A stretch of 64,000 nucleotides of DNA from Tricharina praecox. Taxonomy: Eukaryota. The translations under genes and the position numbers were made by a program. Position 1 is the stretch's first letter; each line of letters opens with the position of its first letter. Location: the NCBI RefSeq assembly GCF_024521635.1, contig NW_026250436.1:248001-312000 (forward strand), written 5' to 3'. Positions 18,986 to 27,031 of this stretch are shown here, piece by piece. The notes under the pieces were generated by a model. That model was not told where the DNA came from and searched no databases. It worked only from the letters and a program-made list of their open reading frames with translations.

Positions 18986-19738
18986 TTATTCAGGGCACAC
19001 CTGCCACTTGACACCAACCTTGAAGCTGACCTTCCCGTCGATGCTGTCGGTAGTGAGGAAGCCCATGCCCTTGGGGTTGGCAGAGTTCTCAACGCGCACC
19101 TGCGAGTTGATATTGAGCGACGCAATCTCGCCGCAAGGCGACCACACGGTCGACGTGAACGGGATCTCGTCGTGGATCAGGTAGTCCTGCGACATGGGAC
19201 CCTTGAAGGCCGTCGAGACGCTGGATTGCACGGTGCTGCCGCCGAAATAGTAGGTGGCCTGGGATGGGGGCGGTCAGTGATCTGGAGGAATACGTGGATG
19301 AGCGAGGGGGGTGGACAAACCTTCTGCAGGCCGGTGACACCCTCGTCGAGCTCGGCGTAGCCACGGTAGTCGGAGGAGTAGACGGAGTACTGGGGATGGT
19401 CATTAGCGGACATGCCCAAGAGTTTCCGTGGCTCATGTACACACCTGGAATCCGCTCGGGTAGTGGAGCTTGACGTTGAGCTGGCAGTTCTTGCGGGCAT
19501 CGGTGACGGTGTAACCGGATCCGACAGCGACGATGTATTCATCGAGAATGACGGTGAACGACTTCTTGTCCAGGGACAGAGAGACCGAGGCCGTGCCCTG
19601 CGGACAGCCGGAACCTCCGTACGTGACTCCCTCGACGGTGACCTGGTCTGGGTCGGGCGCGGAAACATCGACGGCCAAGGGCACGGCCATGACGGACGCG
19701 GCGGCGCCGGCGAGAGCGAGGATGGCGGAAAACTTCAT
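18986..19738 (-). CDS. Secreted DUF4360-family protein, 3 exons
   Basis: Signal peptide MKFSAILALAGAAASVMA; YGGSGCPQGT, RKNCQLNVKLHYPSGFQ|YSV..DYRGYA, ATYYF, VWSPCG, TTDSIDG, W..C terminus. Confidence 0.9.
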
Positions 19739-22003
19739 GGTGAAAGAATGTGCTTGGTTGGAAAGTGAACGTGGGAGTGTATAAAAGACTGGGTGGGATG
19801 AGTCGATTAGAGGAGGAGGAGGATGTCTGTCGGCCTAGCTGGATGAGTGTGGTGAAGAAGGCCGTTGAAGGGGACAATATCTGCTTCTTAAATATCCTCG
19901 GAAATCCGACCATTCACTATTAGCTGCCTCCTAACCTCTCCCTCATAGACAGGTATCGTGTCTGCATATTGCTTTCATGTTGCTACGGATATGGCGGGCT
20001 CGTGACGACTTGAAGCGAGGCACAGTGGAAACTCGTATCGATCATGAGTTCCAAAATGGCATCACACTATCGGTACCAACCGAAGGTGATATTAACTATC
20101 TAGTGGGGGAGGGGAATTTCCAGTGCATCCTCTTTTACCCCCCGGCCTCGAGGTAGAGACGGCCGCGGAAGCAAGGCCGATCCATCATAGATGTCGATAA
20201 CTCCCCAAGATATGAGGCAATCAACCGTATCGATATATCACACCCCTGGGGTCAGACTGCGTAGCACTCCACTGTCAGGAGATCGGCAAGCTCTAGGCCC
20301 TTCCGCTGATGGTGGGGCAAGCATATGACCGCAGCCAGGTGTTGTGATTTCGTGCATCTACCCCACTGCCACTACCAACCTCTACATACCACGGCAGGGA
20401 GGAAAAGCCGGGCCGTAGCATGCTGGTGCTCTCACCGCGGAAGATGCACAGTCAACATGCGATGCGATGAGCTGTGTAGGAGGATATCCTAGTTTGATAT
20501 AGATGGAGTTGGAAGAAACAAGCGAGACCGAGCTGAACATATTCATGGCGGGGTAGTTAATGTGCACGCAGGTACATACACTGTAGATACTGCACGCTGC
20601 CTAGGTATGGCATCAGTCGAGGGGATGATACACTCAATAGACACTATAAATCCGAGTATCATGGGTGTTGACATTGGTGCTGGATGGGTTTAGGTACTCT
20701 ATATATCGCTGTGCCTGTTTCACTTTTGCTATCGTTGTACATACACACGGAGTCAGTCGTTATAATTCCAACTCCAACAGAACCCAACAACGTGATGTAC
20801 CTTAATACAATCCGAAAGACCAACAATAAGAAGGAGAGAAGCGGGGTGCTCGGGAGATATGAGGTGCGGGGAGGGGTGGGGAATACGCTGTCTCACTCAC
20901 TTTTGATCACTCGGTGCTGTTTATTGCTTCCTCTAACACCTTGGCAATTTGCTCAGAATAGCACTAGATATAGCCAGCCTATGACTATGATCGGGCTCGC
21001 CGGCTTGATGTGATGGTGGCTAGATTGGAGTGGTACCTGCAGGTTGGAATTGAGGGGAGCAGGTGCGTAGATAGTCAGATTAACTGACATGATTCACCAG
21101 CATGATGAGTGGCAAATCTAATCCCGCGGATAGCCATCGATGGCTTTTGTTGGATGGATGGATAGATGGGTGGATGGCTATAGAACCCCACTTAATTCGG
21201 AGCTAGCCAATTGAAACAGTGGATACGATCGGAACAGGACGATTCTATCCATAGGCGGCGGAATCGGCTTCGTCCCGGTTCAGCTGGAGGAAAAACCCGC
21301 TGGTAAGCCACTCTAGAGGTCTGCACCCCTCTATCGACGCATACTGGATCACGCCGGGTGCAACCGTGATATGCATTAGGTATAGATATGGCGGATTTTA
21401 GGAAAGCTGTTGTGATATATGGTTAAAGCGGTAGACGCGGGAAACCGGACGGGATCTCCCCGGGAGAGGTTGATGGAGGATGGACTGAAGTGGCAATTCC
21501 GCCGCGCCGAGACTCGTTCGTATTTGCTTCAATCGGCTGGCGCATGGCGGCTGGACTGGATGTGTACGCGAATGCGAGGATTTTGGATTGCGGGGCATCA
21601 GCGGTGGCACCGGATCGTGAGAGGGATTGGTCGTGATTCCCATTTCTTGAGAATCCACTATTTGTGGCCATAGGCTTCGGGTTGGGACTCAGGATGATGT
21701 TTAGCTGGCAAGAGTTGTGTCTAGCGGTCTGTTTACATTCACCGATTCAATTACGAGCACAGGCCCCAAGAAGTAGTGAATATTGCGGTTTTACAAAGAA
21801 ATTAAACATTTGAGAACTATCTGACAAACCCACTATCGACTACAACAGAATGAATCCCCATATCTCGACAACAACCAAAACAGCATACAGGCCAGTGCAA
21901 GCGTATCCCGGTCTCGCAAACACAAAACATAAAAAGAAAGAAACTTTCGTCTGGTGTCTAGTAGAAAACACCATCCTCGTCGAAGCCGGTACTACAATCG
22001 CGT

Positions 22004-22567
22004 TTACGAGACAGAAACGGACCGGGTGAGAGTAGCAGTGGCGGCGGGAATGATGACGGTCCTGGTAACAGTGATGGCACCGGTGGGAGGACGTGCAATG
22101 ACGGTCCTGGTCGCGGCCCCTAGGACAGGAGTGCCGTCGTCGTCAACGGTGGTGTAGAGGCATACGCAATTAAAGGCGCGTGCAGTCATGAAATGTTAGC
22201 GGAAACCAAAAGTATTCGGCGTAGAGGAGTACATATCCCAGAAGGTAGGGTGACATTCTCCCTTGTATGCAACATCGCCGTTGGCGTCTACTTGCTATAA
22301 TGGCCGTCAGATTTTCCCCAAGAAAAACGTGGTGAGATTAATTTCTGGCATACACTCATACAGATGGCGTTGCAAGCCTCTGCCATGTTGTCAGTCACAT
22401 TCGCCCGAAAGAGAGGTGAGAACTGGAAACATACCGGAGACGTAGGGACAGCCAAAGCTTGTGTCCTCACGTTTCGCCAATCCAGCTCCTTCTGCGGCCG
22501 GAGAAGCGTTGACCCCCAGAATGAGGCACGTCAACAGGGAAGAGATGGTGATCTGGAAAGATTTCAT
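22004..22567 (-). CDS. Secreted CS-alpha-beta defensin-like prepropeptide with Thr-rich C-terminal tail (~130 aa), 4 exons, third intron AT-AC
   Basis: Exons 22567-22435, 22379-22354, 22294-22237, 22179-22004 give MKSFQITISSLLTCLILGVNA-SPAAEGAGLAKR-EDTSFGCPYVSEACNAICMSQVDANGDVAYKGECHPTFWGAFNCVC-LYTTVDDDG...SVSVS*. Signal peptide, KR site and C..CxxxC..GxC..CxC pattern. Confidence 0.85.
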
Positions 22568-25500
22568 GGTGTGGAGGTGGTGAAGTAAGTGAATAAAGAA
22601 GTTTACAGATTTCTTGTCAGTTCTGTGGAAGGACGGGGATGGATAGTGGAGCGTCTGTATGACACGTCCGTCTTCTTATATATGAATCTCCATAGTCCAG
22701 AGCAATGGTTCTTATCAACATCGTAAAGTTTTTCGTCTATTTTGCCGCTGAATGGACAGACAACTGCTCGAATGCAACCCGAATTTCACGGTTAGGGTCA
22801 ATCGCAGTTGATGCATGGTCTACGTGGATGCATGTGGATGCAACTTCTCCACCGCGGCCTAAGGACAAGCCATCGTGTGATATCGGATGGAAAAGTTTTT
22901 GCCAATCCTGCTTTCCCATCCAGGTGGTGCCCTGGTCTGTCGGATCAGCCGCGAGCGTATTCTTCCATCCCATTCGAGGGACGTACAGAAAGTAAACATC
23001 CAGCTGAGAATGCTTTTAGCTCAAGCTACTTCCAGCGGAAATGTTCATTGGAATCAGTGATATGGGCCATATGTCAAAGTGCCATCGTTCTTAATACCAG
23101 GTATCGTGGATCTACTGACCGTGGTTCCGATTATAAGTCTGGTCAACTATTGCTTCATACCAGCCTCGTAGTTTTCTCCTTCCCTGCTTCCCTCTTGACG
23201 CCTTACCGTGCCAGTAGCATGCGTTCTTAGTTCTTAGTTCTGCTAATAGCCGGCCGAAGATCCCGGAGGACAGGACGTAAGCCGACTCCGGACGAGCGGC
23301 CCCGGCGTGAAAGTCAAAGCCCGCATAGCTGTTGCAATAGCAAGCCTTGATATCGACTGGTTGCGGTCGTTCCGTGCGAAGAACATTCACGGGTCTGGGT
23401 GGCGTGAATGTCCGCTGATTGTAGATAGCCTCATGAGGCTGGCCACGGCACCTCCGGGAAATACGAATTTCCCCACCGTTGTCCCATTGGCCCTCGAGCG
23501 GATGAAACTTCTCGTGAGAAAACAGCTGCGCGCGAAATCAGCCCATGAGTCGGTTCCGGAGCGCAGCCCGGTTGACCGAATCGACAGCATTGACAGCGTA
23601 GCAAGGGTGGTAATGACTTTCCGGAGACGACGATTCGGTTGGGACCCGCCACACGCAAGTGTAACGGCTCGAACGCCGGGCCCTGAAAATCCCTAGGATC
23701 TAGAGTAGCCCCTTTGTGTCTGGGACCTTCCATTCTCCAGATTCTGTCTACTTCAATTCTAGGAACCCCGTAATATCGGCTGGCACATCCCGGCTGTCTC
23801 CTCGACATGGTACTGCTCGACATCATCCGAGGCTTTTCTGATTCGTCCGTAATTAGAGTCACCTGCTTGGTGCGGTTTCCATATTAGCCTCCCCCCCCCT
23901 CCCACCACTGCGGTCGATCAGATGTACTTCGCCGCCTCTCTTATGCATGCGACGCAAAATCCCGCCCCCGGATCTGCAATCGATACGTCCCGACGTACCG
24001 TCAACGGCTAAGCTAAGATCAACTACAGGACATCTGAAAAACAGCTGTAGCGACGTCGACAGATGCGCCAATGATAGCCCGCCGTGATGGTGAGAAGTTA
24101 GGTTGACATAGGGTATTGTCGGCAGAGTTGCGGTAAAGTGCTTGAAAACAGATGTGCCGATATTGCAGGTGGGTAATTGCAGGAGGAACATTCCTGATTA
24201 CTTCCCCTCAGTGATAATACTAATATTAAGGAAGCGTGGCGAGGTTATATCTGTCCCTCTCGAGTCTCAAGGGGAACCCCAGCCTTCAGGCCATTCGAAG
24301 GATATATGCAACTTGTTACTTTGCCAGCCCCAGCATCAGTAGCGATGTTGATAGGATTCGAACCGGTTGAACTAGCCGTAGATGATTTGACATGTGTGGT
24401 ACCTAAGGCGGACTACTTCGAGGGCCATACGAAGAGCAATTCAACATTTTCAGTATGAATGCCCTGATATCTCTCTCTATATCTGTCAGATCTATCAAAT
24501 CCGAGGAAGTTCGGCCGTGATTCCGTCGTGCATCCCGGATCCTACAAGTCAGTCTCGTGGCAAGGGCGAGTTCCAACTAGCTAAGCCAAATATCGGTTCC
24601 GATAAGGCTATGGATCGGAGATCATCACTGGACATGTGGGGAAATGCACACCCATCAGGGACTCGCCCGGGTATCTTCTAGGAGTGCCCGTACCGACCGA
24701 ACCCTCCCCTCTAGGGTAGCCGCGGGATTGCGGAGCTCAAAGCAAAGTGCCAGTCTCCCTTTTTGTGCATCGGGTATGTACATACATTGTGGAACGAACC
24801 CGCGAGCATCGAAAGTTGCACCCCTTTCCAGGTCGGCGCCTGTGGGTGGGCGTTTTCCTATCCGAAACGTCGGGGGCGGCGATGCAGCAGTTCATGATCG
24901 TACCGACCGCGGTATGGCACAATCCTCGCGTGGTCGACCAATCGCTATGTGTCGTTCTAACTTCTGGACTATGGCGTTTCCCTTTTGCATCTTAAGGTCA
25001 GGATGTGTGCGTCCGTTGTTCTGCGCATGCATAGTATCGCTCCTCACTTGTATGTATGTAGTTATCTCAATATGTGCCGTCAAGGACAGGGTGTGGCGGT
25101 GTTATGTATCTAAAAGGGGTGCCCAGGAATACATTGACATGCCATGATGTGAGGGAAATCTAGGGCAGATTGCGAGTGAAATTACGAGTTAACTCACTCT
25201 ATATATCACTCGTTATGATCCGAACACACTGCTGTTAGCCGATCAGAGATTGGCTTCTTTTGTTTAACATAAAATCATGCATACTAGTTACTACTGTATG
25301 AAGGGACAAAAACAAAATGGGCTTGTTTTTTGAGATGTCAGTTTTTCCAAAGTTGTGAACTGAAAGTTACTCATAGCTCGCTAGAATCGATGGGACGGAG
25401 TATGTGATGATGGAAAGGTCGGGGTTTCGTGCGAGGAACATGAGCTCCCACATCACCCGCACCGCAGCCACTTCGAGATAGCTGGTATATCACATTTCTA

Positions 25501-25647: not shown

Positions 25648-27031
25648 TTACTCGATATCTGACAGCTCCTCTCGGGCCTTGGCTCCACCATCCACGGCGA
25701 ATGCTTTGACCGTGGTGTCCTGCTCGTCCCACATTTCGCTGATGGCACCGAGGAGTAGCTTGGGAAGCGTCGACCACTTCTCCTCCGGGTCATCGATATC
25801 TTCGAGTTGTTTCTCTGCAGGTGATAGGCCACCGGGTTAGCAGGGTGAATCCAGAGTGGTATGTATCTGGGTGAATGAGCACGAACCGAGGAGACAGTCC
25901 ACATATTTCCCGATTTGGTCGTGTTCGTCAAGCTCTCTGAGGAACTTTCCAGCCTTGGTGTCGTTTCCGACCTTGGAGAACTGGAACGCGACAGCTAAGA
26001 CGGACGTTAGTATCGAATCGGACGGGCGATGTTGGAAGAGTTATACCGTGGTCTTGCTTCTTCTTTTTGAGCGCCTCCATACACCGGAATATCACTGATG
26101 TCAATGTGTCTTTGCGTTCGCCTTGGATCTAGGAAGAGTCAGTAGTGATTCGTGGACGCATCCACTCTGTCGGTGACATACTTCTCCATCGGTGATCACC
26201 ATGATGAGCAATGGCCGTTCAAGCTTCTTGCCCTTGGCAAAGACGAAGTTGTCTAGAATCTTCTTGACCTGGGAACCGATTCTGAAGGATGAATCAGTAT
26301 TTGTCGGAGGGTATCATGGTGCATGTGTGTAAGTATTAGGTACCTGGTAACTCCCTCCCATGGATGGTCATTGAGGATCGCCGAGTTCTTGACATTTTTC
26401 CTGCCCTGCAGCGCGTTGAGGAACTTGACGGAGACGATACCATCCGGTCTAGCGTGTTGATAGACCTTGCAGATGCTGTCCACGACCATCTTGAGGGTAT
26501 CGATGCGCTTGCCGTCTTCTTCGTCCATCATGGATGCGGAGTCATCTACCGAGCGCAAAGGATTAGCGGATGCGAAATCACCTGATGAAGGCGTTCGTAG
26601 GGCTCTAGTTAGGGCGTACCGATCAATAGCACGAGATCATACATCGAAAGCAGCGACAGCTCCCTCGCCACTTCCTTATCGGGACATTTCTCTTCAGTGA
26701 TCAACTTGTTTGCCATAGCCGTTGCCTTCTCCGCCTCAGCCTTCAGATCGCCCGAGAAGAAAGTAGCAAGACTCGGTTTGGACTTGAGGAAAGTGGTGAG
26801 GCGCCTGCGAATCTCGGGTTCTCCGACGACGAGAACCCTCTCGGCCTCTGGCTCTATCTCATCCGACCCGAACCAGTCGGAAGTGTCACCGTCCTCCGCA
26901 TCGTAATCGATCTCGTCGTCTCTAGGCTGCTCGAAGAAGTCCAGTTGCGGACCTTTGTTGTCGGCATCGAGTGAGAGGGCTCCTGCGTCTGCTGAGAGCG
27001 TATCCTCCAGCTGCGTGTTGCTTTCGGACAT
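25648..27031 (-). CDS. von Willebrand factor A (VWA) domain protein with acidic N-terminus, 6 exons
   Basis: MIDAS motif YDLVLLI|DDSASM, VSVKFLN, GVT|RIG, PLLIMVITDGE, AVAFQFSKVGND, LPKLLLGAI; canonical introns keep the frame. Confidence 0.85.

Follow-up and report, generated by a model that had tools for sequence, protein, structure and literature searches.

The stretch of DNA analysed here (the window) comprises 64,000 nt of Tricharina praecox, a Pezizomycete of the family Pyronemataceae (Pezizales), and corresponds to positions 248,001-312,000 of contig NW_026250436.1 in NCBI RefSeq assembly GCF_024521635.1. On the minus strand of this window, we resolve a gene with four coding exons (22567-22435, 22379-22354, 22294-22237 and 22179-22004). 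The coding part of exon 1 (22435-22567) starts with the ATG at 22567 and encodes a hydrophobic N-terminus, a KR site and the beginning of a cysteine domain (SFGCPYVS), exon 2 (22354-22379, 26 nt) carries the CxxxC helix part, and exon 3 (22237-22294, 58 nt) ends in ...GEC HPTFW G-. Between them lie intron 1 (22380-22434, 55 nt, phase 1), which reads GTATGT..CTGAC..CAG, and intron 2 (22295-22353, 59 nt, phase 0), which reads GTATGC..CTGAC..TAG; all of these features are supported by both the translation and the contigs described below. Exon 3 is followed by an intron with AT-AC ends (intron 3, 22180-22236, 57 nt, phase 1), which is skipped in the contigs of two public runs, X1 and X2, and then by the coding part of exon 4 (22004-22179), which opens with -AFNCVC-, continues into a tail rich in Thr, Val and Arg and closes with the stop codon TAA at 22006-22004.

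The transcribed region extends over 21854-22635 on the minus strand, as given by the span of a single spliced contig (655 nt) from run X1; both coordinates are fragment ends rather than proven RNA ends, and adapter-like letters are present at both ends of the contig. A putative TATA-like motif (TATATAAG) is found at 22675-22682 on the same strand; the cDNA contig has its 5′ end roughly 40 nt downstream of it. Just before the ATG, the 5′ leader at 22568-22590 (minus strand) translates as LLHHLH..TMK and aligns to LCHHLHFESMK, the N-terminal extension of a Pyronema omphalodes model (P0006). This leader seems to be conserved between Tricharina and Pyronema, and from the alignment, the longer start of the Pyronema model is probably an artefact of annotation. 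Elsewhere in the window, an ORF at 19177-19668 (minus strand) has a sub-threshold match to DUF4360 (E of 5.5e-4, 20.2 bits against a cut-off of 27), the other five ORFs of 150 aa or more in the neighbourhood are without a Pfam match, and a search of the 64-kb window against Rfam returns 0 families. When the window is searched by tblastn with P0004 (a Pyronema domesticum protein), P0006 and the public T. praecox model P0001 for paralogues, only the gene itself is recovered, all other rows having E values of at least 0.64.

Read on the minus strand, intron 3 is ATATGT...GCTAAC-12 nt-CAC, flanked by ...TTCTGGG upstream and by GCGCCTTTAAT... downstream. Its donor hexamer ATATGT (22231-22236) is the GTATGT of intron 1 with the first G replaced by A, positions +2 to +6 being identical. 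The branch-site motif GCTAAC (22195-22200) puts the presumed branch A at 22196, which is 16 nt from the last intron base, compared with 11 and 12 nt for the CTGAC motifs of introns 1 and 2. The branch motif is followed by two ACs, of which the acceptor CAC (22180-22182) is the second; the nearer one, a GAC located 5 nt upstream, is unused in the contigs. A pyrimidine at position -3 is usually preferred at 3′ splice sites, and the choice of CAC over GAC fits this preference, as expected of spliceosomal selection of the 3′ site. In GC content (0.42, against 0.49 and 0.41 for introns 1 and 2) and in size (57, 55 and 59 nt, respectively), the three introns are alike, and the donor, branch and acceptor signals of intron 3 stand at host-like spacing, as judged against the two other introns of the gene. 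The A at 22236 and the C at 22180 are base calls from the genome assembly alone. An unconventional intron of the Ire1/HAC1 type was set aside on the basis of the junction letters, as the donor, the branch motif and the size are all spliceosomal.

Intron 3 contains no AG, and the first AG past the branch point ends at 22120, beyond the CVC codons at 22168-22160. Retention of the intron would keep the frame open at first (57 = 19 x 3) and then run into the TAA at 22198-22196, which is part of the branch motif. The original prediction, which described a 57-nt AT-AC intron at 22180-22236 consisting of ATATGT, GCTAAC, 12 nt and CAC, in a gene with further introns of 55 and 59 nt, is therefore exact in coordinates and letters, and the two other introns are found at 22434-22380 and 22353-22295. 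Its further statements that splicing yields an in-frame FW-G-AFNCVC, that retention meets a TAA in the branch site and that no AG separates the branch point from the CVC codons also hold, the first of them upon removal of the 57 nt in translation.

To place these features at the RNA level, we mapped contigs of four (X1-X4) of the five public runs returned by a run search onto 21500-23000. Runs X1 and X2, which come from two studies, hold 0.54 and 0.30 of the sampled words of this stretch, and the soil metatranscriptomes X3 and X4 have no contig on 21500-23000. In X1, the 655-nt contig falls on 21854-22179, 22237-22294, 22354-22379 and 22435-22635 and carries all three joints as well as the whole coding sequence, and in X2, the three joints recur in a contig of 177 nt, alongside three other contigs. 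The contigs of both runs thus skip 22180-22236, 22295-22353 and 22380-22434. At the joint 22179/22237, 57 bases are skipped, with 0 ambiguous letters and with 58 letters on the shorter side; the skipped bases end in GT..AT on the plus strand, which is AT..AC on the strand of the gene. X1 and X2 are presumed to be RNA, and we read their contigs as cDNA because of the three exact intron removals, together with the intact ORF. The proposed use of the junction 22237/22179 in RNA is thus borne out, as intron 3 is spliced along with introns 1 and 2 in contigs of both runs. No contig of X1 or X2 retains intron 3, at word depths of 6.7 and 3.2, where contigs miss minor forms. X2 additionally has two overlapping contigs (151 and 153 nt) at 22688-22970, upstream of the TATA-like motif, where X1 has none; these could stem from another transcript, either upstream or divergent, or from DNA contained in X2.

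The donor, branch and acceptor letters are not distinctive when taken out of this context. With intron-like spacing, ATATGT..CTRAC..YAC occurs 3 times on both strands of the 64-kb window, and 100 block shuffles give a mean of 1.05 (sd 1.02, maximum 4). The bare motif is therefore no more frequent than chance, and the support for intron 3 comes from its position and from the RNA evidence. Further intron-like stretches of the AT..CTAAC..YAC kind are found at 25906 (minus strand, 86 nt) and 51499 (plus strand, 53 nt), with ATATGT and ATAAGT donors, and their count is within chance. The position of intron 3 is informative because its removal restores the reading frame and with it the last two cysteines (CxC). 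To enumerate the alternatives, each GT or GC donor in the 120 nt that begin with exon 3 was paired with every AG acceptor lying 40-250 nt further on, and none of the enumerated GT/GC..AG pairs keeps the CxC. Since every such pair loses the CxC and retention stops at the TAA, intron 3 is needed to complete the cysteine pattern, as had been proposed. Gene finders restricted to GT/GC-AG introns would truncate or mis-frame the gene.

A public model of this gene is available as P0001 (KAI5843285.1 / XP_051335501.1 in NCBI/UniRef), a 104-aa 'hypothetical protein, partial' of Tricharina praecox, which we retrieved with the exon 1 peptide. Because P0001 equals residues 1-104 of the spliced translation, the public model already uses the AT-AC junction. 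It breaks off at 22085 and lacks the last 26 codons ahead of the stop, and the X1 contig continues past the stop, giving an ORF of 130 aa. The model end lies within 2 nt of the point (22087) at which the 3′ contig of X2 ends, beside the X2 inter-contig gap 22087/22118, which hints that the public model was built from a broken transcript assembly. The public model is thus correct at the junction and 26 residues too short at its 3′ end.

The 130-aa product of the spliced ORF consists of the hydrophobic N-terminus, the KR site, a cysteine span at residues 40-79 and the Thr/Val/Arg-rich tail, a layout from which the peptide is predicted to be secreted and processed, with putative antimicrobial activity. 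Residues 40-79 contain six cysteines in the pattern C..CxxxC..GxC..CxC, in which the CxC lies past intron 3 and the intron itself interrupts the loop that joins cysteines 4 and 5. Searches for a known family return low scores. Pfam matches are sub-threshold only, namely SLR1-BP (14.2 bits, cut-off 22.7) and Scorpion_toxin_alpha-beta (12.5 bits, cut-off 27), and Defensin_2 (PF01097) is absent from the matches up to an E of 10. A sequence search of the PDB with P0001 gives 0 matches at E up to 10, and a profile search gives four chains at E values of 2.8-9.1, three of which are named defensin-like. The AF2 model has a mean pLDDT of 55.8 (68-76 over the domain), with a helix at residues 40-51 and strands at 61-69, 75-84 and 90-99. 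Foldseek with this model finds 0 matches at E ≤ 0.001, and VIA-align reaches a best Z of 3.8, with AtD90 (plant defensin), ASABF, eurocin, termicin, BmBKTx1 (scorpion toxin) and NsD7 at Z of 2.5-2.9, alongside unrelated rows that score equally. An Atlas Defensin_2 cluster has a TM of 0.61 ('under the bar'), and an Atlas search by features yields no usable match. The cysteine pattern, the predicted order of helix and strands and the weak fold matches together lead to 'defensin-like (CS-alpha/beta cysteine pattern)' as the label that the data carry. The name 'defensin' in the original prediction is borne out in its six-cysteine pattern and is too strong as a family assignment, given the Pfam scores below threshold and the lack of a Defensin_2 match.

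A HMMER search over 1.84 billion representatives returns five proteins at E ≤ 0.001, and the only true relative among them is P0004 from Pyronema domesticum, whose cluster mate is P0006 from P. omphalodes. We judged P0003 and P0005, both long repeat proteins, to be spurious, and P0002 was set aside as the window's own ORF, starting inside intron 3. The Pyronema accessions are KAI5794227.1 for P. domesticum and CCX15000.1 for P. omphalodes. P0004 is annotated as a 'protein of unknown function' and does not belong to the pyronesins. It is 42% identical to the Tricharina protein and keeps the cysteine pattern, including the CxC, plus two extra cysteines. Past the cysteine domain, the two genera also have in common a tail of the form TRTVI.RPPT..ITVTRT, in which 20/27 positions are identical. 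With the CxC and the tail shared with Pyronema, the frame behind intron 3 is conserved between genera and under selection. The tail itself, encoded by 22004-22130 on the minus strand and corresponding to residues 85-116 of P0004, is internally repeated and matches no Pfam family. The AF2 model places part of it as the third strand, and it might act as a pro-piece, in wall attachment or as an aggregation-prone strand. A metagenome candidate (L001, 1 confirmed out of 165 matched stretches) was rejected as an unrelated match to residues 15-59 that lacks the defensin-like gene structure, and no candidate came up when the Pyronema gene was sought among short ORF fragments. With matches in these searches only in Tricharina and Pyronema, the comparison suggests a small family, so far undescribed, of cysteine-stabilised, predicted secreted proteins with a conserved tail.

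We conclude, with a probability of about 0.88, that 22236-22180 is a genuine AT-AC spliceosomal intron that is precisely removed, most likely by the U2-type machinery, within a gene for a small, predicted secreted, defensin-like protein. In the mechanism that we favour, intron 3 would be taken out exactly, together with the two GT-AG introns, to give a 130-aa precursor whose last two cysteines are encoded behind it. The major spliceosome would act on a donor that is the ordinary fungal GTATGT except at base 1 and on a perfect CTAAC branch site, and the first and last intron bases would form an A..C pair, a known stand-in for G..G.

The same AT-AC ends could instead belong to a minor, U12-type intron. 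The U12 donor consensus is ATATCCTT, and the donor of intron 3, ATATGTAC, has only the initial ATAT in common with it; at donor positions 5-8, GTAC stands in place of the U12 CCTT, such that all four differ. The U12 branch consensus is TTCCTTAAC (site TCCTTAAC, 10-15 nt from the 3′ end). By eye, TCCGCTAAC agrees with it at 6/9 positions, with its A at 16 nt from the intron end, and this agreement consists mostly of CTAAC, which is equally the ordinary branch motif of fungal U2-type introns. Within the window, no ATATCC..AC match in an intron-like pattern is found. At the level of the phylum, Larue and Roy (2023) report no convincing minor introns in Ascomycota and Basidiomycota, describing a 'complete absence from ... 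Dikarya' (PMC10639083), and the same pan-eukaryote survey reports that most or all minor snRNAs have been lost from both phyla. U2-type AT-AC introns are known to exist, and Sheth et al. 2006 (PMC1557818) count 24 of them in about 610,000 introns from five species. We therefore infer from the GTATGT-like donor, the CTAAC branch motif and the reported lack of a minor spliceosome in Dikarya that intron 3 is most likely removed by the major spliceosome, and we regard a U12-type intron as highly improbable despite its AT-AC ends and ATAT start. The original prediction had named both a U2-type AT-AC intron and a donor unlike that of U12 introns; the latter is evident from the letters, and the former is reached by way of these signals and the phylum literature (PMC10639083).

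The remaining alternatives concern how well the intron is spliced and whether its ends are real. Slow or poor splicing of intron 3 could gate the output of complete peptide, as the original prediction had suggested, with unspliced RNA yielding a four-cysteine stub or being degraded. This is consistent with the in-frame TAA that a retained intron meets and with test introns in yeast and human, in which a G1-to-A change in U2-type introns is reported to be rescued by a last-G-to-C change 'although less efficiently' (PMC1557818). However, no retaining contig is seen in X1 or X2, at depths of 3-7 that cannot show minor forms, and the perfect CTAAC and otherwise consensus donor may offset the weak ends; overall, we consider gating unlikely. 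It is very improbable that intron 3 is an ordinary GT-AG intron with assembly or sequencing errors at both end bases. The A and the C are known from the assembly, the contigs there are spliced only, and P0002, being the window's own ORF, offers no independent check of the end bases; yet two independent errors would be needed, exactly at the terminal bases and in the one combination, A and C, that makes a workable pair. Less probable still than either of these or a U12-type intron is a decaying pseudogene, in which the joined form would be a rare by-product or a processed DNA copy. Although the record of X1 and X2 does not state their kind and they are presumed to be RNA, one contig combines three exact joints with an intact 130-aa ORF, the tail behind intron 3 is conserved in Pyronema, and the window's own copy of the gene retains its introns. 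The reading of 22236-22180 as a genuine AT-AC intron thus remains strongly preferred.

When compared with known systems, the Tricharina intron resembles the U2-type ('type II') AT-AC introns of human SCN4A and SCN5A in its AT..AC ends, its U2-like donor and its membership of a very rare class. It differs from the metazoan type in its small size (57 nt), in its CTAAC branch motif and in its fungal or yeast-type /ATATGT donor, whereas the metazoan U2-type AT-AC consensus is given as /ATAAGT (PMC5029451). A parallel is the yeast actin intron into which, according to PMC5029451 and PMC1557818, Parker and Siliciano (1993) engineered G1A together with a last-G-to-C change. It carries both of the differences seen in Tricharina, again on a GTATGT..YAG background and in an ascomycete that lacks a minor spliceosome. 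The actin double mutant is a laboratory construct with reduced efficiency, whereas the Tricharina intron is natural and the only route to the complete protein. A nested AT-AC event in yeast RPL30 is likewise natural and in an ascomycete without U12 machinery (PMC5029451), but it is described there as accounting for 1-2% of transcripts, as non-productive and as having a donor unlike any consensus, whereas the Tricharina donor is near-consensus and its junction gives the productive form.

AT-AC junctions have also been reported from other filamentous fungi. Some of their xylanase genes have been hypothesised to hold U2-type AT-AC introns (PMC1557818), RNA-seq of Trichoderma longibrachiatum is reported to give AT-AC at 69 of 14,305 junctions, and in Fusarium graminearum, Sanger-checked non-canonical sites are reported to include AT-AC. 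The Trichoderma and Fusarium cases belong to the same class of event and to the same subphylum, Pezizomycotina, and are presented as survey counts rather than as analyses of individual genes, with no Pezizomycete or defensin-like gene among them. Frey and Pucker (2020) describe AT-AC as a minor non-canonical combination in fungi. In the literature, as covered by titles and the openings of abstracts, we find no report of an AT-AC intron in a defensin-like gene. U2-type AT-AC introns are thus already known, including from filamentous fungi, and the Tricharina intron is a well-supported further case.

The host gene can be compared with the defensins plectasin, the pyronesins and eurocin. Plectasin and the pyronesins come from Pezizales, as does the Tricharina gene, and are reported to be Defensin_2 proteins of 92-96 aa encoded with one intron (PMC4165938, PMC3778014); the Tricharina gene does not belong to this set. 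Plectasin, pyronesins 1-6 and eurocin share with the Tricharina protein the layout of signal, pro-piece and mature peptide, the basic cleavage site and the C..CxxxC..GxC..CxC pattern, and several fungal defensin genes, too, are described as having an intron that interrupts the loop joining cysteines 4 and 5 (PMC4165938, PMC3778014). Unlike these defensins, the Tricharina protein has no Defensin_2 match, has longer loops and carries a C-terminal tail of roughly 50 residues rich in Thr, Val and Arg; its gene has three introns, whereas fungal CS-alpha/beta defensin genes have one or two.

It is conceivable, although we consider it somewhat less likely than gating by itself, that the G1-to-A and last-G-to-C changes are recent and lineage-specific, having become fixed in what was a GT-AG intron of a tail-bearing CS-alpha/beta family restricted to Pyronemataceae, in which slow splicing sets peptide output. 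If such slow splicing were true, the locus would be a natural system in which the interaction of the first and last intron bases in the major spliceosome is under regulatory load. Independently of how efficiently it is spliced, the Tricharina intron parallels the classic double mutant of yeast by which this interaction came to light, and it provides a clean natural case of a fungus that, according to the literature on Dikarya, has no minor spliceosome and relies on an AT-AC intron for a complete protein.
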